From assembly GCA_963804165.1 (NCBI GenBank), contig CAWDPO010000003.1:256359-320358 (forward strand): a DNA stretch of 64,000 nucleotides, in the 5' to 3' direction. The notes below the pieces were generated by a model that saw only the letters and a list, made by a program, of their open reading frames with translations, made no database searches and had not been told where the DNA came from. The position numbers and the translations under genes are program-made. This document shows, piece after piece, positions 1-22,188 of this stretch. Source of the stretch: an uncultured delta proteobacterium (GTDB lineage: Bacteria; Desulfobacterota; Binatia; UBA9968). Within the stretch, counting starts at the first letter, position 1. Each line of letters opens with the position of its first letter.

Positions 1-732
1 TCGGCGCAGTTCAAGCAGTACGAGGGACTGGTTTGCAACATGATGGAGTTTGTATTGAGCAACGGCGGTGCGTTGTGGAATGAACAGCGCCTCCAAAGCA
101 CGCTCGATGACGCCAAGGCGAAAGAGGCGGTGCGGTTCGTGCGCGATCAAATTATTCGCTTAATCGCGAATCGCGGCATTCTGGCCTACCAAGAACCGGA
201 ATCGCTGGCCTTGTTTACGCAGGGAAAAGCGATCTTCCATCGCAATTGGCCCTACGCCTGGGAAGCGTCCAATGACCCTAAACAGTCAAAAATCGCCGGT
301 AAAGTCGGCATCGTACCGTTGCCGGCTTTTCCCGGGCAAAAGAGTGCTGCCACCCTCGGCGGTTGGCAGCTGGGCATCAGCCGCTTCTCGCGTAATCCGC
401 AGCTTGCCTGGCAATTCGTCCAATTTATGACCAGCGGCGAGACGCAAAAACGGATTGCGCTCGAAACCGGCCGCGGGCCGGCGCGTAAGGCGCTCTATCA
501 TGATCCCGAGATCCTCAAGAAAAGTCCCCAGTTCCAGTCGCAGTACGAGACGTTCACTCTGGCCGCGCCGCGGCCGCGAACGCCGGTGTACCTACCCCTT
601 TCAAACGTCTTACAGCGTTACTTCAGCTCGGCCATCGCCATTGCCGATTCCGACATCGACCAGCTGGCGCGAGCTGCGTCGCGCGACATGGATCGCGCCT
701 TGGACCTCTTGCGTGATCGGAGACAGCGGTGA
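1..732 (+). CDS. Sugar ABC transporter substrate-binding protein (trehalose/maltose type), 5'-truncated by the window edge
   Basis: Open frame from base 1 (SAQFKQYEGLVCNMMEF); motifs FHRNWPYAW and ATLGGWQLGI of SBP family 1; followed by two permeases and an ATPase. Confidence 0.9.
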   Translation, partial: SAQFKQYEGLVCNMMEFVLSNGGALWNEQRLQSTLDDAKAKEAVRFVRDQIIRLIANRGILAYQEPESLALFTQGKAIFHRNWPYAWEASNDPKQSKIAGKVGIVPLPAFPGQKSAATLGGWQLGISRFSRNPQLAWQFVQFMTSGETQKRIALETGRGPARKALYHDPEILKKSPQFQSQYETFTLAAPRPRTPVYLPLSNVLQRYFSSAIAIADSDIDQLARAASRDMDRALDLLRDRRQR

Positions 733-1619
733 GCAACCACCAAGATCCGGTCTGGCGCTTTCTGGTGCCAAGTTTTGTCTTCGTCGGCGTATTTTCTCTC
801 TATCCGATTCTGGACTCCTTTCGCCTGAGCTTTTACCGCATGATTTTGACTCTGCCCTGGCTCGGCCAGAAATTCGTCGGCTGGGACAACTACCGCGATC
901 TCATCACCGATCCCGTGGCACTCGGGTCGCTCAGCACTTCCGTGATATTCGTCGCCGTCACGACTCCGATCGAAGTGCTTCTCGGTCTCGCCATGGCGCT
1001 GGTGTTGAACGAGTCCTTTCGCGGCCGCGGCTGGCTGCGCGCCGTCGTGCTCATTCCCTGGGCGGTGCCCACCGTGGTCTCGTCGCAAATGTGGCGTTTC
1101 ATTTTCAACGACCGCTACGGACTTTTTAATTATCTATTGTTCGGCGACGCGACTCAGCTGTACTGGGCGCCGCTCGCAGAGCCGGATTTGGCGCTGCTAT
1201 CGATCATGATAGCGGACATTTGGAAGACCAGCGCATTTGCCGCGCTGATCATTCTCGCCGGACTGCAGGTGATTCCCGGTGAGCTCTACGAGGCCGCCAG
1301 CATCGACGGCGCCAGCACGTGGCGAAAGTTTCGCCACATTACTCTGCCGCTGGTCAAGCCGGCTTTGCTGTTGGCGCTGCTATTTCGCACGATCGACGCG
1401 CTCAAGGTCTTCGACCTGGTCTTCGTCATGACCCAAGGAGGGCCCGCGGACACGACGAATCTTTTACAATTCTATGGCTACAAAAAGAGTTTTGCCGAGG
1501 GTATGATCGGCTACGGCTCGGCGATCGCGGTCGTGGTATTTTTGCTCTCGCTCCTCCTGTCGGTTCTCTATATTCGTCTGCTCGGGACCGGTTTGCTCCG
1601 AAAGGAGCGGCAAACATGA
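729..1619 (+). CDS. Carbohydrate ABC permease (MalF/UgpA-like)
   Basis: TM helices, EAA loop ELYEAASIDGA; GTG start overlaps the upstream stop. Confidence 0.92.
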   Translation: MSNHQDPVWRFLVPSFVFVGVFSLYPILDSFRLSFYRMILTLPWLGQKFVGWDNYRDLITDPVALGSLSTSVIFVAVTTPIEVLLGLAMALVLNESFRGRGWLRAVVLIPWAVPTVVSSQMWRFIFNDRYGLFNYLLFGDATQLYWAPLAEPDLALLSIMIADIWKTSAFAALIILAGLQVIPGELYEAASIDGASTWRKFRHITLPLVKPALLLALLFRTIDALKVFDLVFVMTQGGPADTTNLLQFYGYKKSFAEGMIGYGSAIAVVVFLLSLLLSVLYIRLLGTGLLRKERQT

Positions 1620-2428
1620 AAAAATTCGCGTTCGCCGCATCCGTGGTCGCGATCGGTACGCTGACCCTGCTGCCGTTTCTTTGGTTCGTGCTCACGTCTT
1701 GGAAAAACGCTGCGGAGATCAACGCCATCCCGCCGGTTATCCTGCCGAGTTTTCATTGGGGAAACTATCGCGCGGCGATCACGCAACACGAGCTGCTTCA
1801 TTATATCGGCAACAGCGCGATCGTCGCGTCGGCGACAACTCTGATCAGTCTCGCGATCGCGTCGCTGGCGGCCTTCGCGCTGGCGCGGTTCAAATTGCGC
1901 TGGGCGCGCTACTATCTGATGTTGTTGCTGGCGCTCTCTATGTTTCCTCAGATTGCCATTGCCGGTCCGGTGTGGCGGCTGTTGAATTTTCTGGGCTGGC
2001 TCAATAGTTATCACGGCATCGTTGCCGCGTATATTTCGCTTTCGTTGCCGTTTGCGATCTGGGTGCTCACGACGTTTTTCCAGGAGCTGCCCTACGATAT
2101 CGAAGAAGCGGCGCTGGTCGACGGTTGCACACGCTGGCAAGCGCTTCGACTCGTCGTGTTGCCGCTGGCGGCGCCGGGACTTTTTACCGCGGCGATTCTC
2201 GTTTTCATCCACGCCTGGAACGAGTTCTTTTTCGCGCTGATCATTTTGACCTACCCGGCGTTGCAAACGCTGCCGGTCGGCATCGCGCTGTTCCCCGGCG
2301 AATACACGATGCCGTGGGGCGAGATCGCCGCAGCTTCGACGATTGCCACGCTGCCGCTGATCGCGCTCACGCTGATATTCCAGCGCCGCATCGTCCAGGG
2401 CTTGTCAGCGGGAGCAGTGAAAGGTTGA
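1616..2428 (+). CDS. Carbohydrate ABC permease (MalG/UgpE-like)
   Basis: ATGA overlap at 1616; EEAALVDGC loop; C-terminal GLSAGAVKG. Confidence 0.92.
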   Translation: MKKFAFAASVVAIGTLTLLPFLWFVLTSWKNAAEINAIPPVILPSFHWGNYRAAITQHELLHYIGNSAIVASATTLISLAIASLAAFALARFKLRWARYYLMLLLALSMFPQIAIAGPVWRLLNFLGWLNSYHGIVAAYISLSLPFAIWVLTTFFQELPYDIEEAALVDGCTRWQALRLVVLPLAAPGLFTAAILVFIHAWNEFFFALIILTYPALQTLPVGIALFPGEYTMPWGEIAAASTIATLPLIALTLIFQRRIVQGLSAGAVKG

Positions 2429-2463
2429 GTCTTCGATTCAATCGGTAACAGGGGGAGGAAGCC

Positions 2464-3549
2464 ATCGCGTCTCTGATCATAAACAAAGTCTCTAAACATT
2501 TCGGCGACAGAGAAATCCTGCAGGAGGTTTCATTCGAAGTCGCCGACGGAGAGTTCTGCGTCCTGCTCGGCCCATCGGGATGCGGCAAGACAACACTCTT
2601 GCGCATCGTCGCGGGGCTGGAATCGGTGTCAAGCGGCACGGTCAGCATCGACACCACGCGGGTCGATCCGCTGCCCCCGGGCGATCGCGATGTTGCTTTC
2701 GTGTTTCAAAATTACGCGCTCTATCCGCACATGTCGGTTTTCGACAATCTGGCCTTTTCTTTGAGGCTGCGCGGCGTGCCGAAAGGCGACATTCAATCGC
2801 GTGTCGCCGAGGTGGCGCGATTGCTGGAGATTGAAAACCAGCTCACTCATAAACCGCAACAACTGAGCGGTGGGCAAAGACAGCGGGTCGCATTGGGGCG
2901 CGCGATCGTGCGCCGACCGAAGCTATTTCTCTTCGACGAGCCGCTATCCAACCTCGACGCCACGCTGCGGACCAACATGCGTGTCGAGCTCGCCAGACTG
3001 CACCATCAGCTGGGCTCGACCATGCTCTACGTCACCCACGATCAGGCCGAAGCTATGACTCTCGGCGAGAAAATCATCGTGTTGAATCGGGGCACGATTC
3101 AACAGATCGGCGCGCCGTTGGAGATTTATCATCGGCCAAGCAACTTATTCGTTGCCGGCTTCGTTGGGCAGCCGCAGATGAATCTTATCGAAGGCCGGTT
3201 GGACGCTGGGGGCAAACTTCACAGCGATACGGGGCTGGAACTGGATCTTTCCGATATCGCACCCGGCCGTGCCACGGCGGACTCATCGATGACTCTGGGC
3301 ATTCGCCCTGAAGATTTTCGTCCTTGCGCCGCGGCCGAGGCCTGGTTTTCCGGCACGGCCGATTTCGTCGAGGACCTGGGTTCGGACCGCTTCGTTCATG
3401 TTCTCTGTGGCAGGCTTAAACTTGTGGCACGCTTGCCGGCGCAAAATCCGATCAAGCGCGGCGCGGCGCTCTACCTGAACGTCGATCCCCAGCGCGTGCA
3501 TCTTTTTCGCGATGGCAAGCGCGTCGAGTCGTCTGGATCCGCAGGTTGA
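2464..3549 (+). CDS. Sugar ABC ATP-binding protein (MalK/UgpC-like); apparent ATC start
   Basis: Walker A GPSGCGKTT lies upstream of the ORF-track start; LSGGQRQR signature, FDEPLSNLD; GGAGG 5 nt before ATC2464; in-frame TAA at 2446. Confidence 0.88.
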   Translation: MASLIINKVSKHFGDREILQEVSFEVADGEFCVLLGPSGCGKTTLLRIVAGLESVSSGTVSIDTTRVDPLPPGDRDVAFVFQNYALYPHMSVFDNLAFSLRLRGVPKGDIQSRVAEVARLLEIENQLTHKPQQLSGGQRQRVALGRAIVRRPKLFLFDEPLSNLDATLRTNMRVELARLHHQLGSTMLYVTHDQAEAMTLGEKIIVLNRGTIQQIGAPLEIYHRPSNLFVAGFVGQPQMNLIEGRLDAGGKLHSDTGLELDLSDIAPGRATADSSMTLGIRPEDFRPCAAAEAWFSGTADFVEDLGSDRFVHVLCGRLKLVARLPAQNPIKRGAALYLNVDPQRVHLFRDGKRVESSGSAG

Positions 3550-3678
3550 AAGGGGAATTGGTTACCGTATACGCGCGCTTGCTTGGAGCCACTCGTCACG
3601 GCGGCGTTGCGATTTGCCTAATCGTCGACGCCGCCGGGCGCCTAACCTCGGTGAGCTAAATGAGGCGCGATCAGGTGG

Positions 3679-4161
3679 TTAGTGCGGCGTACCACCCAAT
3701 CCGCTTGCCTGCGCGACGATTTCGCTTACACTCTTGTCGAGATCGAGAGGGCGGTTGATGCGCGCATCGTCGCGCTCCGGCACGAGGGCGTAAACCTCCA
3801 GGCGGTTTCCCTCAGGATCAAGAAAATAGCATGACACGGTGTTGCCCATTTCCTCGTAAGCATGGCTCACGCAGTGATCGATCGGCACGCCCAGCGCCTT
3901 GAAACGTTCATAATACGCCTTGACGTCGGCAGGCGTGTCCGCGCGCCAGGCGATGTGCGCAATGATCTTGGCATTGCCCTCGCGTCCCTTGGCAAGAGCG
4001 AGTTGGTGGTCTTCGATGTTGGGGTCGGCCGTCAGAAATACCATCCGTCCGGCGCGCTCGCGGTATTTCACGAGTCCCAATACGTCTTTGTAAAAGGCCA
4101 CCATTTTGTCCAAATCATTGACATAGAGTACCACGTGGCTCAGGCCTTTAATCGTCGGCAT
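3679..4161 (-). CDS. VOC/glyoxalase family protein
   Basis: SHVVLYV...HIAW...YFLDPEGNRLE motifs; AGGAGG RBS. Confidence 0.88.
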   Translation of the reverse strand: MPTIKGLSHVVLYVNDLDKMVAFYKDVLGLVKYRERAGRMVFLTADPNIEDHQLALAKGREGNAKIIAHIAWRADTPADVKAYYERFKALGVPIDHCVSHAYEEMGNTVSCYFLDPEGNRLEVYALVPERDDARINRPLDLDKSVSEIVAQASGLGGTPH

Positions 4162-4259
4162 AATTAACGCCTCCTTTCAGGATTTCGCGCGCGGAGCGCG
4201 CGCAGTCTGGGCAAACGTCATTCGGTTTTTCTGTCATTATCGGGTGCGATCCTGGCCAG

Positions 4260-4289
4260 AACGTATCCGATTAGTTTGTCGGATGTCAA
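4260..4289 (-). promoter_or_regulatory. Putative sigma70 promoter of the VOC gene with overlapping operator palindrome
   Basis: TTGACA (4289-4284), then TACGTT 18 nt later; ATCCGA-N8-TCGGAT inverted repeat fills the spacer. Confidence 0.5.
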
Positions 4290-4304
4290 TGAAAGACTGG
4301 TCGC

Positions 4305-4546
4305 GGAATAAACACAGCGGGGCCTCGGGTTCTCGTGGCGGGCGGAAATATCAGCCGTCAGCTTGCTGCGGGTTAGTTCACTAACGATAATGTGGTTGTC
4401 GTGGATTTGAGCTGACTGGCGGGCTGACTCGTCCGTGCTTTTCGATCTCTTCGCGGGGTCGTCGGATATCTCGATTAACTGAGGCCTGGCGCCGGGGTAT
4501 AGGAAGCCTGGTGTCGTATCCAGTTGTGATTTCCTATCCCCGGCGA
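4305..4546 (-). ncRNA. Candidate structured non-coding RNA
   Basis: Starts 12 nt after a sigma54 -12 GC; hairpin 4490-4545; long-range GGCCTC/GAGGCC pairing; nested TCAGCC..GTCAGCT / AGCTGAC.GGCTGA stem; no RBS-led ORF. Confidence 0.5.
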
Positions 4547-4556
4547 AGGACTATTC

Positions 4557-4572
4557 AGCAAACCTCGTGCCC
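4557..4572 (-). promoter_or_regulatory. sigma54 -24/-12 promoter
   Basis: Minus strand GGGCACGAGGTTTGCT = GG-N10-GC with consensus GGCACG and TTGCT. Confidence 0.7.
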
Positions 4573-4872
4573 TGATTTGTCGCCACGGGCTTACCGACTT
4601 TAGAGAAGTTAAAACCGCGTGCAAGGACTTGCGCTATATAGCGCCAATGGCAAGTTTGCCTGCTGAACTCTTCAACCAACTTGATCGGGTTAAATTGCCG
4701 ATACGGCGAGAATCTCCGATAGTCTATTGGGTTTCAAATAGCGGTGCGGGAAATTGTGAAATGCTGCGCTGCGCATCGAATTACGCAGGCAGATTATGTT
4801 ATATCAGAATAACGCCAGGTCTTTCGCAGATGGCGGGCGCGCGAAGCGCCATCAATAAAAGGGGGAAAGATA

Positions 4873-5868
4873 ATGCGTCGAGTTCTGTTTTGCGCGGCGC
4901 TCATTGCGGCAATCGGTTGTCCGCTGACCGCACCGGCACAGGAGAAAAAACTGGAAAGACTTCGCACGGGCGGCGGCTCGGCGTCGGGCGCGCAGATGTC
5001 GATTTGGCTCGCCAAGGAAGGTAATTTCTACGAGAAGAACGGTCTCAATGTCGAAGTGATCAGCATTCCGGGAAGTTCGCTGGCGCTCCAGGCGATGCTT
5101 TCGGGAGAGCTGCCGATCATCCAAGCGGGCGGCGCCGGACCGATTCAAGCCGCGCTCTCGGGCACGGATACCGTCGTCATCGCGACCATCGCAAAAAAAT
5201 TCAATTGGTGGATATTCGCCCAACCCAACATCAACCGCATCGAAGATTTGCGCGGCAAAATTTTCGGCACGACACGCTTTGGCACCCAGTCCGACCTCGC
5301 CTCCCGCATCGCGTTACGCCGCGCCGGCATCGATCCGGAGCGCGACATCACCATGGTCCAGACGGGCGGGCCGGCGGAAACCATCAGCGCCATGGTGGCC
5401 GGCAAGATTCACGCTGCGGCAGTCACGCCGCCGGCGACCCTGCAAGCGCGAAAAGTGAAACTCAAGGATCTGGTGGACCTTTCCAAGCTCGACGTCGAAT
5501 ATCACGTCAACGGCGTGGTGACGACGCGCAAGTTTCTTAAGTCCAATGAAGATACCGTTCGCCGTTATCTCAAAGCGTACATCGAGGGCGCAGTGCGCGG
5601 CATGAAGGACAAGGTCTTCGCCATGAAGACGATGGGAAAGTATTTCCGCACGGACGACAATGACGTGCTCGAAGAGACCTACGAGATGATCATAAAAACC
5701 GGCTTTAGTGTGCCGCCCTATCCGGCGGGCATCGCGAGCCTGCTACAGGAGCTGGAAAAACCGTTTCCGAAAGCCAAAGGCGCGAAGCCGGAAGATTTCG
5801 CTGATAGCCGGCTGGTGCGCGAATTGGATCAAAGCGGTTTTATCAAGTCGCTGCTCGCCGGTCGCTAA
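4873..5868 (+). CDS. ABC substrate-binding protein, NMT1/THI5/SsuA-like
   Basis: Signal peptide; KNGLNVEVI, DLRGKIFG, C-terminal VRELDQSGFI. Confidence 0.88.
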   Translation: MRRVLFCAALIAAIGCPLTAPAQEKKLERLRTGGGSASGAQMSIWLAKEGNFYEKNGLNVEVISIPGSSLALQAMLSGELPIIQAGGAGPIQAALSGTDTVVIATIAKKFNWWIFAQPNINRIEDLRGKIFGTTRFGTQSDLASRIALRRAGIDPERDITMVQTGGPAETISAMVAGKIHAAAVTPPATLQARKVKLKDLVDLSKLDVEYHVNGVVTTRKFLKSNEDTVRRYLKAYIEGAVRGMKDKVFAMKTMGKYFRTDDNDVLEETYEMIIKTGFSVPPYPAGIASLLQELEKPFPKAKGAKPEDFADSRLVRELDQSGFIKSLLAGR

Positions 5869-5944
5869 CCCTCAAGAAACAAAATTTGAATACATCGGGG
5901 AGGTGGAGCTTGTTCGACTTGCTTGCCGGTAAACATCCGGCAAT

Positions 5945-6585
5945 ATGTGTTTTCGTTCATGTATTTGTGTTGTTTCAACTCATTAGCTCTCAAGGGCATG
6001 CCGCGGACAAGATCAGACTGGCGGTTCCGGATGTCGGCGGGCAGTTTATCACGTATCCTCTGGCGCACAGCCGAGGGTTTCTCAAACAGGAAGGGATCGA
6101 CGCGAGAATGTTTTAATTCGTGGCAACACGGTGTTGGCGGCGATGTCCAGCGGTGACGTCGACTACACGGTGGGGATTCAAGGCGTGCGCGGAGCGCTGC
6201 TCGGTATGCGCTCAAGATCGTCGCTTGCTTCGAGCCTCGAGCGGCCTTACAGTCCACGCCAAACGGCTGCGCGAAAAACCGGATGAAATCAAGCGGATTA
6301 TTCGGGCGGGTATGAAGGCCAACGGCTATATTCGGTCAATCGCGACGGCACTATTAAATTCTTGATGGAATGGAGCGCGGCACCATTGAGATCGCGTCCG
6401 TTACATACGACGCGGTCTGGCGCGTCTACAACGCCGACGGCAACGTGCCGATGGATGGATTCAATCGGGTCGTGCAAGACATCAAGGAACAGCGCGACCT
6501 CAAGCGCGATGCGCCGTCGAATGAACTGGCGGATCTAACAGCTTTGCGCCAGGCGCAAGCCGAGCTTGGTGTCAAAGGCAAGTAA
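5945..6585 (+). pseudogene. Decayed NMT1/THI5-like substrate-binding protein
   Basis: Fragments HAADKIRLAVP..GFLKQEGIDA, EIKRIIRAGMKA and LRQAQAELGVK in different frames; about 640 bp versus about 1 kb for intact paralogs, implying internal deletion. Confidence 0.75.
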
Positions 6586-6654
6586 TTAAGCGTAACTAAA
6601 TTCCAGCTCCCTTGGATCTCTCTCAGAGAACGCAGACGCGAAGAGCAGTGAACT

Positions 6655-7548
6655 ATGACTCAATCCTCGCAAGATCTATTTCGGATTACGTTGCTCGGCA
6701 CCGGCGCGCCGCCGCCGAGCCTGGAACGCTTCGGTCCGAGTACGCTGGTCGAAGTCGGTGAGCAGAAGTTTATCTTCGATGCCGGGCGCGGCGCCATGCA
6801 GCGGCTGCATCAGCTCGGGATTCCTTTCAGCGAGATTACCGGTATGTTTTTGACGCACCATCATTCCGACCATGTCGTCGGCTTTCCGGATCTCTGGCTG
6901 ACCGGTTGGATCGGCCGGCCATGGGGGAAACGCAGCACACCTTTACAAGTTTGGGGGCCGGAGGGGACGAAGCAGATGATGGAACACTTGCCGAAAGCGT
7001 TCCACGTCGACATCCGTGTGCGCAGCAAAAGTTATCCGGCAGAGGGCGTGAAATTAGTCGCGCATGAGATCGCCGAAGGAATCGTGTTCGAGGATGATGG
7101 CATCAAGGTTAGCGCATTTGAAGTCGATCACGGCGGAGAGGACTTGCCGGCCTACGGCTATCGAATCGATTACAAAGGCCATGCGGTCGCGTTGTCTGGC
7201 GACACGACGTTTAATGAAAACCTGATTGAGCATGCGCGCGGCGCCGACGTCCTCGTTCACGAAGTGACCGCTGTGTCCGGCAGCGCGGCGGAAAGCGCGG
7301 AGCAGCTCAAAAGAATCGGCAGCAATCACGCGACGCCGGAGCAGGCCGGCGAGGTCTTCGCCCGTGTCAAGCCAAAGTTAGCTGTGTACAATCATCTGCT
7401 ACTATTCGGCGGCGCCAAAGCCGCGGACCTGGTTCCGGCGACGAGAAAGAAATATGGCGGGCCGTTGATGGTCGGAGAGGATTTATTACAAATCGCCATT
7501 GGCCAAGAGGTTCAGGCGAAGCCATTCGAGAATTTACGCAACGGCTAA
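6655..7548 (+). CDS. MBL-fold metallo-hydrolase (RNase Z/AtsA-like)
   Basis: LLGTG, THHHSDH, SGDT, HEV and NHAT motifs. Confidence 0.88.
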   Translation: MTQSSQDLFRITLLGTGAPPPSLERFGPSTLVEVGEQKFIFDAGRGAMQRLHQLGIPFSEITGMFLTHHHSDHVVGFPDLWLTGWIGRPWGKRSTPLQVWGPEGTKQMMEHLPKAFHVDIRVRSKSYPAEGVKLVAHEIAEGIVFEDDGIKVSAFEVDHGGEDLPAYGYRIDYKGHAVALSGDTTFNENLIEHARGADVLVHEVTAVSGSAAESAEQLKRIGSNHATPEQAGEVFARVKPKLAVYNHLLLFGGAKAADLVPATRKKYGGPLMVGEDLLQIAIGQEVQAKPFENLRNG

Positions 7549-7571
7549 TTTCTTCGAAGAAGGATTTCTAA

Positions 7572-8582
7572 ATGGTGCTTCTGAAATCACTTATTCGTTT
7601 CTCACTTGCATGTGCGTGGCTGGCCATTGCTCCGTTCAGCTTCGCCGCCGCTCCCCTCGAACCCGTCACCATCGGTTATTCGACGTTCTCCGGGGCGTAC
7701 TTGCCGCTGTGGATCGCCGTCGAAGAGCGTTTAGGAAGAAAATACGGTCTCGATTTGAAAACGATCTATGCCGGCAGAATACGGCCGCAACAGCTTCTCG
7801 CGAGCGACGAAGTCCCGTTCGTCATGGCGAGCGGTACGGGTGCCCTTACTTCACACATTCTCGGCGTGAGAGACCAAGTGATCGTCATGACCACCATGAA
7901 CAAGGTCAATTCCGCTATTTTCAGCCGCAGCGACATCAAAAGCGCGGAAGAACTGCGCGGCAAAACCATAGCGACCGGTCGTCCCGGCGCGTTCGGCGAG
8001 ATAATGGTTCGGTATGTGTTGAGAGCGAAGCTCGGGCTTGTTCCGGACCGCGACGTAAAAATGCTGCCGATCGGTGAAGCTCAGTTGGCGTTTCCGGTAC
8101 TGGAACGCGGCGTCGTGCAGGCGGCCTCGCTGACGATTCCTTTTACGTTGATCGCGAAGAAAATGGGTTATCGGGAATTGATCGACTACGATAAAGCCGG
8201 CGTCGTATATCCGTACAACACCGTCACGACGCTGCGCCAAACGCCGGCCAAGAGCCCCGAACTAACCGAGAAGTTTTTGAAGACGATGATCGAAGGAATT
8301 TATCTCTCCAAGACCGACAAAGAGAAAAGCTTGGCCGTGTTGAAAAAATATATGAAAGGAACGGCCGACGACACCTTGGAAGAGACGTATCAATACGCCA
8401 AAAGCGCCGTGGAAGACGTGCCCACCCCATCTTTGGACATAACCAAAGCGGCACTGGAAATTTTGTCCTATCAATATCCGCAAGCGAAGGAGACCGACCC
8501 GAACTTGATCATCGACACAACGATCATGAAGCGTATCGAACAGAGCGGGTTCATTAAGGCGCTTTATAAAAAGGGAGGTTGA
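7572..8582 (+). CDS. ABC substrate-binding protein, NMT1/THI5-like (paralog A)
   Basis: Signal peptide; KYGLDLKTIYAGRIRPQQLL. Confidence 0.88.
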   Translation: MVLLKSLIRFSLACAWLAIAPFSFAAAPLEPVTIGYSTFSGAYLPLWIAVEERLGRKYGLDLKTIYAGRIRPQQLLASDEVPFVMASGTGALTSHILGVRDQVIVMTTMNKVNSAIFSRSDIKSAEELRGKTIATGRPGAFGEIMVRYVLRAKLGLVPDRDVKMLPIGEAQLAFPVLERGVVQAASLTIPFTLIAKKMGYRELIDYDKAGVVYPYNTVTTLRQTPAKSPELTEKFLKTMIEGIYLSKTDKEKSLAVLKKYMKGTADDTLEETYQYAKSAVEDVPTPSLDITKAALEILSYQYPQAKETDPNLIIDTTIMKRIEQSGFIKALYKKGG

Positions 8583-8713
8583 GTTTTCTTGGGCGGATTG
8601 AAGGTCGTCTCGGCCCTGACGGCGCGCGTTGCAAGATGAACTTTTAGAGTTAGGATTGGCACCGGAGTAATCACGGTCGTTTCTGAGTGGGCAAAAGGAT
8701 CGAAGGAGGGATT

Positions 8714-9079
8714 ATGTCGATAAAGCTTAATCACACGATTGTGCCGGCAAAGGACAAAGAGGCTGCAGCGACGTTCTTCGCGAAGCTTTTCGGTCTCAAT
8801 TACGATGGGCCGATGGGGCACTTCGCGCCTGTGCGCGTCAACAAGGAATTAACTTTGGACTTTGATAATGCCGAGTCCTTTGAGCCGCATCACTATGCGT
8901 TTCATGTAGACGATGACGAATTCGACGCGATTTTTGGGCGCGTGCAGGAGGCTGGCATCTCTTGGGGCAGCGATCCTAGAAATACGACGAACCGCCAATT
9001 GAACTCCCGAAAGGGCGGCCGCGGCGTTTACTTTCACGGACCCGACGGTCACCTGCTGGAATTGATGACACGCGCTTGA
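8714..9079 (+). CDS. VOC family protein
   Basis: AAGGAGG RBS; LNHTIV, HHYAFHV, GRGVYFHGPDGHLLE. Confidence 0.88.
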   Translation: MSIKLNHTIVPAKDKEAAATFFAKLFGLNYDGPMGHFAPVRVNKELTLDFDNAESFEPHHYAFHVDDDEFDAIFGRVQEAGISWGSDPRNTTNRQLNSRKGGRGVYFHGPDGHLLELMTRA

Positions 9080-9084
9080 GCGCG

Positions 9085-9211
9085 AAGTTCAGAAGGTTGG
9101 GCGGGAATCGAGAAGGCTTTGGAAATCTGGATTCCGGGTCGCGCTGGCTTGCGCCAGCTTGCCCGGAATGACGATTGAATTATGTTGTGCATTCCTGAAC
9201 CACCGCACTGG
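9085..9211. repeat. Miniature repeat element containing a TGGATTCCGGG..CCCGGAATGACG REP-type palindrome
   Basis: Imperfect palindrome 9128-9173; ends resemble those of the CTAG-bounded elements at 32097 and 47858. Confidence 0.55.
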
Positions 9212-9328
9212 AATCGTTTCCCATCTCCGAGCCCAACTTTGCTTTCATGGAGTTCTCGTAAGGTCCCCCGATGGTCATGCCTACGTCTTCATGTAGATAA
9301 GTTTTTGGATATCTGAAATAGTTGAACT

Positions 9329-9673
9329 ATGGGCAACAAAATTACCGATATCGGGAAGATGAAAAGCAGTGTGGACGCCGGAGTTCGCAGAGGGGTTTTC
9401 GATGGCAAGAAGAATGCAAAGTTGGGGACTGAAAAGAATCCGGCGGTTGTGACGGTACCAACAGAGAATAGAGTCAAAGAAGTGAAGTCTGTATTTGAAA
9501 AACATGGATGGACTTATCAAATCGAACTAGAACCGGACAAACCTGAGGATATCGCCGATCTGACGCGATTACTGAACCCACTCAAACCGGTGATCGCCGA
9601 AAAAAAAGTTGGACGTAATGTGCCTTGCCCATGCGGCAGCGGAAAGAAATATAAAAACTGCTGTGGTCAGTAG
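9329..9673 (+). CDS. SEC-C metal-binding motif protein (PBPRA1643-like)
   Basis: KLGTEKNP motif and C-terminal [20 protein letters not shown]; AT-richer than neighbours; start uncertain. Confidence 0.85.
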
Positions 9674-9713
9674 CGGATGCGCGGTTCGGTTTATTCGCTA
9701 CGAAATATTCGGG

Positions 9714-9740
9714 CCCTTCGACCAGCTCAGGGCGAACGGA
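9714..9740 (+). repeat. REP-like unit CCCTTCGAC..GCTCAGGGCGAACGG
   Basis: Related copies near 17081, 27991, 29538, 48056 and 59221. Confidence 0.7.
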
Positions 9741-9991
9741 CAAAGAAGAAACCGTATCTGATCGTTACATCAATTCATTGTTCTGTTGGCGTATACGCGC
9801 GCGAATGAAAATAGCTGTTTGCGCCTAACGTGGGCGATTCGGGAGTCGGATCCCGGTCCAGTTCGCTGCGCGCGCTGCCATTTAAGGATTTCCTGGGTCT
9901 GAAAGCTGCCTGCGTGGATGCTGTTTCATTGACATGAAACCGGCGCGGTGATAACCGGCAAGGTTAATCCAGCATCGACGGGATTCACTTT

Positions 9992-10996
9992 ATGCTTCAA
10001 CGACTGAGTTTCCTCGCCACATCTTTTGTTGTCGTTTCGTTGTTTTTTGCCGGCCAGGTTTTCGCCGCGGCGCGGCTCGAACCGCTGACTGTGGCGTACT
10101 CGAACTTTACGGGCACGTACGGACCGCTTTGGCTCGCGGTCGAGGAACGCGTCGGAGCAAAGTACGGATTGGACTTGAAAGCGATCTACGCCGGGAGAGT
10201 GCGGCCACAGCAGTTGCTCGCCACTGGCGATGTGCCGGTCGTTGTTGCTTCGGCGACCGGTACAATGACTGCCCATATTGCCGGGGTCAAGGATCATGTG
10301 TTGGTCGCCACCCTCACCAGTAAGATCGGTACATCGCTCTTCGGCAAGGCGGGCATCAAGAGCGTGGAAGACTTAAAGGGCAGGACGATCGCGACCGGCA
10401 GGCCGGGCGCATTCTTGGACGCGACGGTGAGATACGTGCTGCGCACCAAATTCGCCATGAATCCTGATCGCGACGTGAAGTTGTTACCCACCGGCGAACC
10501 CTATCTCGGTTTGCAGGCGTTGGAACGGGGCGTCGTCGACGCGGCGGCGATGTCGGTTCCCCATCTCTTCATTGCGCGCAAAGCCGGCTTTCGAGAATTG
10601 GCCAATTTCGATAAGCTCGGGATCGAATATCCCTACACAAGCGTGGTCGTTTTGCGGCAGACGGTGGCCAAAAATCCGGAGATGGTGGAACGATTCTTGA
10701 AATGCCTCATCGAAGGAACTCATCTATTCACGACCAACAAGGCGAAGACCCTGGCAGTGTTCAAACAATATATGAAGGGCGCCGACGACGAGATCCTCGA
10801 GGAGACGTACCAGGCGACTCGCGGGACGTTGGACGAAGCACCGCATCCGTCAGTTCAAGTCGTGAAAAGTGCCTTGGACATGCTGTCCTTGCAATATCCA
10901 CAGGCCAAGCAAACCGATGCAAATTTGATTGTCGAGCCATCATTTATGAAAAAAATTGACGACAGCGGATTTATACGGGCGCTCTATAAGAGATGA
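9992..10996 (+). CDS. ABC substrate-binding protein, NMT1/THI5-like (paralog B)
   Basis: Signal peptide; KYGLDLKAIYAGRVRPQQLL. Confidence 0.88.
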   Translation: MLQRLSFLATSFVVVSLFFAGQVFAAARLEPLTVAYSNFTGTYGPLWLAVEERVGAKYGLDLKAIYAGRVRPQQLLATGDVPVVVASATGTMTAHIAGVKDHVLVATLTSKIGTSLFGKAGIKSVEDLKGRTIATGRPGAFLDATVRYVLRTKFAMNPDRDVKLLPTGEPYLGLQALERGVVDAAAMSVPHLFIARKAGFRELANFDKLGIEYPYTSVVVLRQTVAKNPEMVERFLKCLIEGTHLFTTNKAKTLAVFKQYMKGADDEILEETYQATRGTLDEAPHPSVQVVKSALDMLSLQYPQAKQTDANLIVEPSFMKKIDDSGFIRALYKR

Positions 10997-11150
10997 CAAA
11001 GACGATTCGAACGCGTTCAAGCCGTTCACATCGTTTAAGCTGCGGCAGGTCGAGACAAATACGAAGTTGACTCTTGAGTAAAAATTGCAGACGAAATACA
11101 AAACATAGCGGAATCAAATTCGAAATTACTTCGGAAAGTGAGAAGAACCC

Positions 11151-12191
11151 ATGCTTGACGGAAAATTGAGAATCGCGCCGACCTGTTATCACATGCTGCA
11201 TCAAGTACCGGTGATGACCGCGCACGAGATGAATTTCTTTTATGACGAGGGGCTGGTCACGCCCCACGGAACGCTGGGCTATGAGATATTGACCGATTCG
11301 ATGGTGCCTTTTGGCCTCGAAAAGCTGGGCATCTCACAGGCGATGAAAGAGAAGTCCATCGATATCGCGCTGGATGTCCAGTCGCGCACGGTTTTTTATC
11401 AGCGCGCCCGGGGCGCCGATCTCTACATTCTGTGCGGCTGGCGCAATCAGCACACCAATGTGTGGATGGCGCCGCCGCATATCAAGACGCTGCAAGACTT
11501 GAAAGGCAAGCGCGTCGGTATCAGTGACTTCAACAGCATTCGCCATTGGGCGATCCAGATACAACTCAAGAAGGCCGGTTTGGATCTGGAGCGCGACATC
11601 GAGTGGGTGAGGCTCGGCGTCAACGGCAGATTCCACGTGGACGCGATCCGCAGCGGCAAGGTTGAATGCGCTCCGGTGTCGCCTTGGAACGCCGAAGATC
11701 TCAAAAAGGAAGGTTGCAATGCGCTGGTTTCTCCCGCCGATCAGTATCCGGATGGACGGCCCGAGCGCATCATTGCCGCCACCGGACGTATCCTCGAAGA
11801 GCGGCCCGACCTGGTGAAGAGTTTTCTTCGGGGCATGATCCGCAGTTATTGGTTTATTCGCGACATGCCGAAGAACTTCGAATATGTGAACAATCTGGAA
11901 AAGCGCCTGCGGCTCAAGAGTCCGGACCCGGAAGAGCGCGTGGTGACGCACCTGAGAAGCCCACGCGATCTCGAAGCCATGCCATTTCCGTTGAACGGCC
12001 GGGCGACCGGTTTCGAAGACATGCTTAAGGAAGAAGAGCGGCTCGGCGAGCTCAATTACGAAGTGCCGCCGATCAAAGAGGTCGCCGCGCAGGATCTCGT
12101 CGACGAGGCGTTTAAAGAATTACGCGGAAGAAAAGAGCTGGCGGAAGAGTACGAGCGCGTGAGTCAAGTCGAGAAGCGGTGGGGATATTAG
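11151..12191 (+). CDS. NMT1/THI5-fold protein without a signal peptide
   Basis: DLKGKRVGIS and RPDLVKSFLRGM motifs; no hydrophobic N-terminus. Confidence 0.8.
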   Translation: MLDGKLRIAPTCYHMLHQVPVMTAHEMNFFYDEGLVTPHGTLGYEILTDSMVPFGLEKLGISQAMKEKSIDIALDVQSRTVFYQRARGADLYILCGWRNQHTNVWMAPPHIKTLQDLKGKRVGISDFNSIRHWAIQIQLKKAGLDLERDIEWVRLGVNGRFHVDAIRSGKVECAPVSPWNAEDLKKEGCNALVSPADQYPDGRPERIIAATGRILEERPDLVKSFLRGMIRSYWFIRDMPKNFEYVNNLEKRLRLKSPDPEERVVTHLRSPRDLEAMPFPLNGRATGFEDMLKEEERLGELNYEVPPIKEVAAQDLVDEAFKELRGRKELAEEYERVSQVEKRWGY

Positions 12192-20805: not shown

Positions 20806-22188
20806 ATGAGTAATGTGCCGGAGCGAAATTCGCGGCCGCGAATCCTCGTCGTCGATGACGATCGCGACATGTGCCATTTTCTCACGGATATATTGACTGA
20901 AGAGGGGTATGACGTCGAGGCCGCCCACGACGGCGAGTCGGCGATTCAAAGATATCAGGCCGGGGCATTTGCCTTGACGATCACAGATCTGATGATGCCG
21001 AAAATGAAAGGCATCGACCTGGTCAAGCGCCTACGCGAGATCGATAACGGCGCCCTGGTGCTGCTCATTACTGCATTTGGCACGATTGAAAGCGCGGTGG
21101 AGGCGATGGCCGCGGGGGCGTTTCACTACGTGACGAAGCCGTTTCACACCGATGAGATACTTATCCAGGTCAAACGCGCGCTCGAACAAAAATATCTCCG
21201 TGACGAAGTCAAAAGGCTGCGCACCGAAGTCCAGGCGCGCGAGCGCTTCCAACATATCATCGGCCGAAGTACGGCGATGCAACGGGTATTTGAAGTCATC
21301 GCGCAGGTGAGCGACTTGCCGGCCAATATTTTGATCGAAGGTGAAAGCGGCACCGGCAAAGAGCTGATCGCGCGCGCGATTCATTTCAACAGCGCAAGAG
21401 CGGCCGGGCCGTTCGTGGCGCTGAATTGCGCGGCCATTCCCGAGACTTTGCTCGAGAGCGAATTGTTCGGCTACGTGCGCGGTGCGTTCACCGATGCGCG
21501 CAAGGACCGGCGGGGCCTCTTTCATGAGGCGGCGGGCGGAACATTGTTTCTAGACGAGATCGGTGAAATTCCGTTAACCCTGCAGGCGAAGTTGTTGCGG
21601 GTTTTGGAAGACAAAGAGATACGCCCGCTGGGGGGCAATCAAAGCGAGAAGGTCGATGCCCGCGTGCTGTCGGCTTGCAATCGCAGTCTGGAAGAACTCG
21701 CGCGCGATGGCAAATTTCGCCAGGATCTTTTTTATCGACTCAACGTCATTCGCATCGAACTGCCGGCGCTGCGCCATAGGCGCGAAGATATACCGCTGCT
21801 CGTCAATCATTTCATGGAAAGATTCGCCATGAGCGTCCACCGCAGTGTCGAAGGCGTCGCGCCGGACGCCCTGGCCGCTTTGACCGGTTACGACTGGCCG
21901 GGAAATATCCGCGAGCTTGAGCACACGATCGAGCGCGCCGTGATTCTCGGTAAGGGAACGATGATCGGGACGGAAGACTTGCCGGTTCACGTAGCCGCTC
22001 GCGCCGAGCAGGAAATCGACCTGGGTCAAGCGGTCGCTAATCAGGTCACCCTGCGCGATCTCGAACGGGAGTACATCGCAAAAGTTTTACATTCCACCCA
22101 CGGCAACAAAACGGAAGCGGCGCGGATCCTGGGAGTGGACCGGACAACGCTGTATCGCAAATTGGAAGAATTCAAATTCAAGGACTAG
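20806..22188 (+). CDS. sigma54-dependent response regulator (NtrC/AtoC/ZraR family)
   Basis: Receiver (VVDDD, DLMMP), GESGTGKE, GAFTDA, LFLDEIGE, Fis-type HTH. Confidence 0.95.
   Translation: MSNVPERNSRPRILVVDDDRDMCHFLTDILTEEGYDVEAAHDGESAIQRYQAGAFALTITDLMMPKMKGIDLVKRLREIDNGALVLLITAFGTIESAVEAMAAGAFHYVTKPFHTDEILIQVKRALEQKYLRDEVKRLRTEVQARERFQHIIGRSTAMQRVFEVIAQVSDLPANILIEGESGTGKELIARAIHFNSARAAGPFVALNCAAIPETLLESELFGYVRGAFTDARKDRRGLFHEAAGGTLFLDEIGEIPLTLQAKLLRVLEDKEIRPLGGNQSEKVDARVLSACNRSLEELARDGKFRQDLFYRLNVIRIELPALRHRREDIPLLVNHFMERFAMSVHRSVEGVAPDALAALTGYDWPGNIRELEHTIERAVILGKGTMIGTEDLPVHVAARAEQEIDLGQAVANQVTLRDLEREYIAKVLHSTHGNKTEAARILGVDRTTLYRKLEEFKFKD

Follow-up and report, generated by a model that had tools for sequence, protein, structure and literature searches.

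A multi-copy cassette with a sigma-54-type promoter signature and a covarying, probable leader hairpin in Binatia

A 710-bp spacer in the genome of an uncultured member of the Binatia holds one copy of a cassette that recurs elsewhere in the same genome and across its order. The evidence tilts towards reading this cassette as a unit of candidate activator sites, a sigma-54-type promoter and a predicted 5'-terminal leader hairpin. The spacer lies in the window, by which is meant the whole 64,000-nucleotide stretch of DNA that was analysed, and is flanked by two divergent genes. On the plus strand, an NMT1-like ABC substrate-binding protein (SBP) is encoded at 4873..5868 (Pfam PF09084, E = 4.4e-20). 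The ORF that comes next behind the cassette, on the minus strand, encodes a VOC/glyoxalase-family protein of 160 aa (3679..4161; Pfam PF00903, E = 2.1e-19). The window's own genome, G000, belongs to genus g1, and the comparisons below draw on a genus set of 31 genomes and an order set of 123.

Binatia are abundant in soil and uncultured, and a literature search, with subscription journals outside its coverage, found no work on sigma-54 or regulatory RNAs in this group. With its sharp promoter architecture, helically phased candidate activator site and covarying hairpin, the cassette offers a handle on one regulon of these bacteria, in which it occurs up to eight times per genome before uncharacterised small genes. 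It could furthermore be curated, in the manner of Rfam, as a candidate new cis-regulatory RNA motif, and it exemplifies how a promoter can spread as one unit with its leader.

The cassette family, its promoter and upstream motifs

Plain BLAST of the window region against the 31 genomes of the genus reached only G020, together with repeat matches of 25-30 nt; the family is visible only through profile and covariance models. Sensitive BLAST within G000 yielded two sequences partly paralogous to the promoter and hairpin, from which a profile was built, and nhmmer places eight cassette copies in this genome (E 6e-66 to 5e-6). A covariance model detects the cassette in 10 of the 31 genomes of the genus, and a second covariance model detects it in at least 20 of the 123 genomes and at least 4 of the 27 genera of the order; because the order-wide search scored 33 candidates per genome and the MAGs are incomplete, these genome counts are lower bounds. 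Within genus g1, at least 9 of the 30 other genomes carry the cassette in addition to G000. It is present in all eight genomes of g27 and in the single genomes of g10 and g24, and in none of the 33 genomes of families f2 and f3 among the candidates scored.

The alignment comprises 42 true members. The window cassette is 60-64% identical to its non-orthologous relatives and is thus no recent copy. When metagenomes were searched with a 34-nt pattern from the hairpin, three contigs came back, all of them near-identical to the G020 allele, which therefore add no diversity. One genome of the collection, G012, carries five cassettes within 15 kb, set among receiver-only genes and repeated small ORFs; Pfam searches with the five small ORF families of this island gave no matches.

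The promoter signature of the window copy, GGGCACGAGGTTTGCT, occupies 4557..4572 on the minus strand, with the -24 GG at 4571-4570 and the -12 GC at 4559-4558. The earlier note on this DNA had read a sigma-54-like promoter at this place, and that reading holds both in the sequence itself and across the family, where GG-N10-GC is present in all 42 aligned members. A genome-wide search for GGCAC-N5-TTGCW gave 34 matches against 33.8 expected from base composition; a match to the motif is by itself at chance level, and so the promoter call rests on the comparative pattern. G000 encodes rpoN (PF04552 at G000:C38, E = 5.4e-62) and has 34 matches to the sigma-54 activator domain PF00158, 28 of them at E <= 8e-64. 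We infer that the window site is a sigma-54-type promoter, with a predicted dependence on sigma-54 and a predicted start site. A search of sequencing runs for this DNA gave 24 runs of DNA type, with small word shares, and none of RNA.

Upstream of this site, 89 bp from the -24 GG, the palindrome GGCAAACTTGCC (4649..4660, minus strand) is a candidate binding site for the activator (bEBP). A GGC-N6-G[CT]C palindrome, GGCAAAGTTGCC-like, is found in 36 of the 42 members at 77-91 bp upstream of the GG, and its spacing falls into two classes, 87-91 or 77-80 bp, which are about one helical turn apart. In G020 the window palindrome is kept with one change, and the element at 4660-4649 can be regarded as a conserved candidate enhancer. 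Another palindrome, TGCGCAGCGCA (4775-4765), which had earlier been suggested for this role, has been set aside; it falls inside 65 bp (4776-4712) that are absent from G020.

Further out, ATCGG-N9-CCGAT (4684..4702, minus strand) is the window form of a distal family motif, GACAATTTAACCCGAT, that aligns among the eight paralogs and may have a regulatory function. The expression GAC..ACCnGAT recovers the distal motif in 24 of the 42 members, at a distance of 106-132 bp before the GG; the window copy goes uncounted because GGC replaces GAC. No activator gene was found near the cassettes in 52 loci (244 kb), save one weak fragment in L142, and among the ORFs inspected in the 16-kb neighbourhoods of G121 and G120 none was evidently a kinase or an activator.

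The probable leader hairpin

The predicted transcript opens with a 56-nt hairpin at 4490..4545 on the minus strand. Its arms, CGCCGGGGATAGGAA (4545-4531) and TTCCTATACCCCGGCG (4505-4490), form a 15-bp stem with one bulge, with an inner CUGG/CCAG helix, and it begins 13 nt past the -12 GC, in a family range of about 13-15 nt. Folded alone, the hairpin reaches -29.6 kcal/mol with z = -5.37, a value that none of 200 shuffles equals. Between G000 and G020, 54 of its 56 positions (4545-4490) are identical (binomial P = 4e-5 against a neutral level of 76%), and the same holds for 189 of the 222 positions of the whole cassette (4711-4490; P = 8e-4). The neutral level is that of fourfold-degenerate sites in the flanking genes of the same two genomes (44/70 + 136/166 = 180/236).

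Across the family, the stem covaries. In a 43-row alignment, 90.6% of cells are paired, as compared with 83.1% in shuffled alignments (none of 500 shuffles attains 90.6%) and 28-51% with the partner columns displaced, figures that are not probabilities, as the alignment was fitted to the model structure and is biased towards pairing. Double-sided changes are seen in 8 of the 11 hairpin pairs (50 cells) in this alignment, and in 7 of the 11 in an older one of 29 rows, among members that are paralogs and kin and not independent samples. The 43rd row, the reverse strand of one hairpin, is part of the covariation test and is left out of all counts based on 42 members. The 56-nt hairpin that the earlier note had placed behind the promoter is thereby borne out, and two of the checks proposed there, homologs with covariation and a fold z-score against shuffles, favour this first element, and neither favours the second domain that was drawn beyond it, as described below.

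On the promoter strand, the hairpin stems hold 48 G-U cells against 22 A-C cells. This excess favours, though not decisively, an RNA structure that is read in the promoter direction; 22 A-C cells are not negligible, and so a small share of the probability stays with a DNA-level role of the inverted repeat. The loops measure 20-50 nt overall and 30-39 nt in 36 of the 42 members. In the family consensus the 5' half of the loop is conserved at a level with the promoter, and from inspection by eye no conserved inner helix is claimed for the loop across the family. A T-run, defined as at least four T within 12 nt past the hairpin, follows the hairpin in 11 of the 42 members. In the window there is no U-run behind it, the next sequence being CCAGGCCTCAG, and this copy does not qualify as an intrinsic terminator or attenuator. 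The earlier note had recognised no RNA family in this DNA; the Rfam 15 covariance models gave no match at E <= 1 over window positions 1-12000, and a scan of two other cassette loci (L063, L083) along with three repeat loci returned nothing relevant.

Genes behind the cassette, proposed mechanism and known systems

In the relatives of the window copy, ORFs lie directly behind the cassette, which thus appears to behave there as a sigma-54 promoter with a 5' leader. Within G000, with distances counted from the promoter motif, the C18a copy is followed by a gene for a PLD-like secreted protein (+127), the C42 copy by one for a zinc-ribbon membrane protein (+163), the C9a copy by one for a 98-aa secreted protein (+181) and the C35 copy by one for a receiver-only response regulator (+298; receiver by Pfam). 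In other g1 genomes the ORFs begin 8-31 nt past the end of the model and encode either hydrophobic peptides of 35-45 aa with acidic tails or CxxC zinc-ribbon proteins. Fourteen loci were added from the order search. Four of these have an intact receiver-like ORF (>=120 aa with a receiver-like N-terminus) that starts 40-142 nt past the model end, and several more have truncated receiver-like ORFs; at the G121 locus, an ORF that overlaps the cassette carries a receiver domain at residues 57-168 (Pfam).

From this anatomy a mechanism can be sketched. An enhancer-binding protein encoded elsewhere would bind the palindrome at 4660-4649, with 4702-4684 as a second conserved site, and would drive RNA polymerase-sigma-54 bound at the GG (4571-4570) and GC (4559-4558). 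With a transcription start around 4547-4545, the RNA would fold its first 56 nt into a stable 5'-terminal hairpin. The window transcript would most likely run on for about 385 nt, across sequence that shows no constraint, before it enters the VOC gene. Such read-through would give VOC a second, signal-dependent promoter; otherwise Rho would end the transcript as a non-coding RNA. The hairpin itself most likely stabilises the transcript or serves as a regulatory or protein-binding stem-loop, and in the roughly one quarter of members in which a U-run follows, it could act as an attenuator.

Parts of this design are familiar from other systems. The cassette resembles classical sigma-54 (RpoN) promoters in that its GG and GC are exactly 10 nt apart and that a conserved palindrome, the candidate activator site, lies some 80-90 bp upstream, and G000 has rpoN and many activator genes, as other sigma-54 systems do. 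Unlike those promoters, it has no candidate activator gene adjacent to it, and its promoter is part of a unit of about 270 bp that takes in a hairpin predicted to be transcribed and is present in up to eight copies per genome. At nasF of Klebsiella, a regulated terminator in the leader lies behind a sigma-54 promoter and is subject to antitermination by NasR. Similarly, in the cassette a leader hairpin stands directly behind a sigma-54-type promoter and has a T-run in some members (11/42), but the window copy lacks the T-run, and neither an ANTAR-type protein nor a second hairpin was identified. Bacterial mRNAs can carry 5'-terminal stem-loops that stabilise them, for instance in the ompA 5' UTR, and in the cassette, likewise, no more than about 1-3 nt separate the predicted 5' end from the start of a stable stem. 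In contrast to a pure stabiliser, the cassette has a loop whose sequence is conserved too, which stabilisation does not need.

In genomic organisation the cassettes can be compared with the Qrr sRNAs of Vibrio, which depend on sigma-54 and LuxO and have several paralogs per genome. The cassettes, too, are several paralogous sigma-54-type units per genome, with shared upstream sites and a conserved core that is predicted to be transcribed. They differ from Qrr in that they have no Rfam match (E <= 1), in the absence of a terminator in the window, in the ORFs that lie close behind most members, and in belonging to a different phylum. Enhancer-dependent ncRNAs also have a precedent in a lineage once grouped with Binatia. 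For Desulfovibrio vulgaris Hildenborough, four sigma-54-dependent ncRNAs are listed among 36 regulons, three of the four being adjoined by an activator gene in that listing (Kazakov et al. 2015, PMC4641369). The cassettes resemble these ncRNAs in layout but have no Rfam match, and no activator gene was found adjacent to them in the 52 loci.

A bolder reading, to which we give a rather low probability, is that the hairpin cassette defines a new class of enhancer-dependent riboregulator in Binatia, with a regulon controlled through trans action or through cis and trans action combined. One activator, acting by way of a short, sigma-54-driven hairpin RNA with a conserved loop, would then coordinate receiver-only response regulators and small membrane peptides, and within this class the copy in the window would be wholly non-coding.

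The window locus and alternative readings

The VOC start lies at +395 after the window promoter motif, the cassette being placed about 385 nt before the gene. As the earlier note stated, there is no RBS-led ORF between the promoter and VOC; each of the two minus-strand ORFs of at least 30 aa (4475-4624 and 4551-4679) has its start on the upstream side of the promoter. No minus-strand intrinsic terminator was found between 3600 and 5000. Proximal to VOC, at 4260..4289 on the minus strand, lies a promoter-like region composed of TTGACA (4289-4284), N18 and TACGTT (4265-4260), which contains TCCGA-N8-TCGGA. The earlier note took it for VOC's own promoter, and this is probably its role: the TTGACA and operator-like region is conserved before VOC orthologs that have no cassette (for example those of G018, G015, G013 and G041), although the TTGACA...TACGTT region (4289-4260) falls below the thresholds of a sigma-70 scan.

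VOC orthologs (E <= 1e-20) are present in 100 of the 123 order genomes. Among the 30 best-scoring VOC loci, two of which are from genomes flagged as unpublished, a sigma-54 motif within 900 bp upstream of the gene is found in G000 and G020 only. The SBP-VOC pair is shared by G018, G015 and G013, with spacers of about 260-400 bp and no cassette. Because genomes with the same pair keep the VOC-proximal region in the absence of the cassette, the cassette here is best seen as an addition specific to this lineage, with VOC independent of it. A leader role for VOC in the window is likewise doubtful, since the ORF is some 385 nt away and has a conserved putative promoter of its own.

The earlier note had proposed an sRNA of about 240 nt with two domains, the second (4489-4305) closed by GGCCTC/GAGGCC, whose recurrent ACGA motifs would sponge a protein; evidence of function in that RNA is limited to its first 56 nt, and the proposal now seems very unlikely. 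Complementary segments do exist, and the full 242-nt fold has z = -3.16, a value that stems from hairpin 1 because 4489-4305 alone has z = -1.25 (20 of 200 shuffles fold equally well). When the 45 predicted pairs outside hairpin 1 are followed into G020, 24 are unchanged, 7 are changed on one side, none is compensatory and 14 are broken, including two pairs of the closing helix and 2/3 of the GTTAG/CTAAC stem. The distal part (4305..4436, minus strand) is unconstrained, with 94 of 134 positions (70%) identical to G020 against 76% at the neutral level; the post-hairpin segment (4437..4489, minus strand) is possibly constrained, at 46 of 55 positions (P = 0.13, not significant alone). No other cassette member has a counterpart of 4489-4305, post-hairpin sequence differs between cassette subfamilies, and the window offers no terminator to end such an RNA. 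ACGA occurs five times, in G020 as well, against 1.95 in dinucleotide shuffles, which is a weak enrichment (P = 0.03 before correction for having chosen this 4-mer), and it lies in the hairpin loop of only 12 of the 42 members. The region also includes, at 4355..4380 on the minus strand, a 25/26 match to the 5' end of a genus-wide REP-like palindromic repeat, of which it covers the first 26 nt only; the full unit (CCCCGCAGC-AA-GCTGCGGGG type) is absent in the window, its right arm and the rest having been lost.

An independent sRNA of shorter extent deserves more credit, even if it is less likely than a leader. It would consist of the hairpin plus at most some 50 nt more (4545 to about 4437), be released by Rho or by processing, and act in trans on mRNAs or on a protein through its conserved loop, the ORFs of relatives being reached by read-through or belonging to a dual-function RNA. 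That the 5' half of the loop is conserved as strongly as the promoter suits such a role, and where a T-run follows the hairpin (11/42) an RNA of about 75-85 nt would result. The window itself lacks a terminator, which speaks against such an RNA; the predicted transcript has more C than G (C/G 1.2-1.9), a composition that would suit the loading of Rho. Neither the window copy nor the C35 copy of G000 has an ORF near the hairpin (nearest at +395 and +298, respectively), as opposed to g27, in which a receiver ORF begins about 40 nt past the model end. Multi-copy sRNAs driven by sigma-54 have precedents in Qrr and in the D. vulgaris ncRNAs, and the variation of post-hairpin sequence between subfamilies speaks against this reading. 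On balance, the cassette with its leader hairpin is the reading preferred here.

The window copy could also be an orphaned relic that was duplicated or inserted between SBP and VOC, was left without an ORF of its own and is now functionless here. Of the 30 VOC-ortholog loci scanned, those of G000 and G020 alone have the cassette in place, other genomes have the same gene pair without it and G041 keeps a short piece only, the sequence that follows the hairpin shows no constraint, and at the C35 copy of G000 the 5' end of the PLD-like gene persists as a similarly decayed remnant. What makes a relic improbable is the level of identity between G000 and G020, which is above neutral for the hairpin (54/56) and for the cassette (189/222), with the promoter GG and GC and the palindrome intact in both genomes. 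Equally far from the preferred reading as the 240-nt sponge, and to be thought very improbable, is an element that works as DNA, either a protein-bound inverted repeat or the hairpin-forming end of a mobile element. Its multiple copies, patchy distribution and the integrase and IS91-like genes within a few kb of two G000 copies (integrase by Pfam) would accord with mobility, and the 22 A-C cells become pairs when the opposite strand is read. Against this, the place of the hairpin just downstream of the sigma-54 signature is fixed in 42 of 42 members, G-U outnumbers A-C by about 2:1 on the transcribed strand, and a palindrome bound by protein would hardly be expected to have loops as long as 20-50 nt. 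Furthermore, 60-64% identity to non-orthologous members argues against recent transposition, and terminal repeats or target duplications are not established.

In G041 a short cassette piece (TTAACTTCT...GGGCACGAGGT) is joined to VOC-proximal sequence. The window has direct repeats, GCACGAGG (4570-4563) and CCACGAGA (4339-4332), of which G041 has a single copy, a pattern that a target-site duplication by insertion or a deletion in G041 would fit equally well.

Duplication of the promoter-hairpin cassette

In the window's own genome, G000, one copy of the promoter-hairpin cassette (candidate activator sites, a sigma-54-type promoter and a 5' leader hairpin) lies on contig C35. Next to this copy (locus L072, C35:31693 onward) stands about 100 nt of decayed sequence that corresponds to the 5' part of the PLD-like gene downstream of the C18a copy (L063); the start codon of this remnant is gone and an unrelated receiver gene then follows. 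Comparison with C18a shows that, when the cassette was duplicated, a piece of the gene then lying downstream of it was copied too. Within about 4 kb of two G000 copies (L062, L060) there are genes for a tyrosine recombinase (Pfam Phage_integrase) and for a fragment of an IS91-like transposase, the latter called from ORF text only; the positions are C9:5677-6327 and a site on C18 that follows the C18b cassette about 3.9 kb downstream. An island of cassettes is found in another genome of the genus, G012, where C4:19000-35000 (L138, L139) holds five cassettes in 15 kb together with three receiver-only response-regulator genes.

Small open reading frames associated with the cassette

Open reading frames directly 3' of the cassette hairpin code for peptides that form one family and are about 35-45 aa long (L089, downstream of G000 C18:43143-43249; L081, L074, L071, L085). 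In every member a single hydrophobic helix is combined with an acidic tail at the C terminus, e.g. V-T-T-x-L-L-I...V-V-V-A-F-V-Y-x-I-M-x-D-D-D. The family resembles small membrane peptides or toxin-like ones. Repeated small ORF families also occur in the G012 island, namely 102-aa proteins with KLRDHPLM..NWPPVW, 76-79-aa proteins (MMMQPYKDYFIEG) and 83-aa proteins (MNVLIEMSVEVYD), and Pfam gave no hits for them.

Surroundings of the window cassette

Window 4355-4380 (minus) matches a REP-like repeat family that begins (A)TGAACTACCCCGCAGCAAGCTG(A)CGGGGTATCAGAAC and is often continued by a second hairpin (CCCCCGAATGTTTTAATCGGGGG). The family (L003-L010 and L013-L026; G000 C15:112935, C20:38888 and C46:377644) is multi-copy in several genomes of the genus, with nine matches in G012 alone, and the flanking sequence is different at each copy. 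An Rfam scan of three of these loci (L004, L008, L009) returned nothing relevant. A 65-bp stretch at window 4712-4776, containing the palindrome TGCGCAGCGCA, is present in G000 and missing from the related genome G020 and three metagenome contigs. The closest sigma-54 activator gene within the window (AAA+ domain, E = 2.8e-70; about 21256-21759, plus; G000:C3:277614-278117) is about 17 kb from the cassette.

Upstream region of the VOC gene

Across the genus, orthologs of the downstream VOC/glyoxalase-family gene have in common a TTGACA box and, after it, an inverted repeat (CCGACAAAnnAATCGG type) overlapping the -10 region (window 4260-4289, minus; also upstream of VOC in L030-L032, L038, L041 and L050). 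This repeat looks like a conserved repressor operator of the VOC gene. About 400 bp upstream of its own VOC gene, genome G041 (L030) carries two inverted DnaA-box-like 9-mers (TTATCCACA / TGTGGATAA), 2 bp apart.
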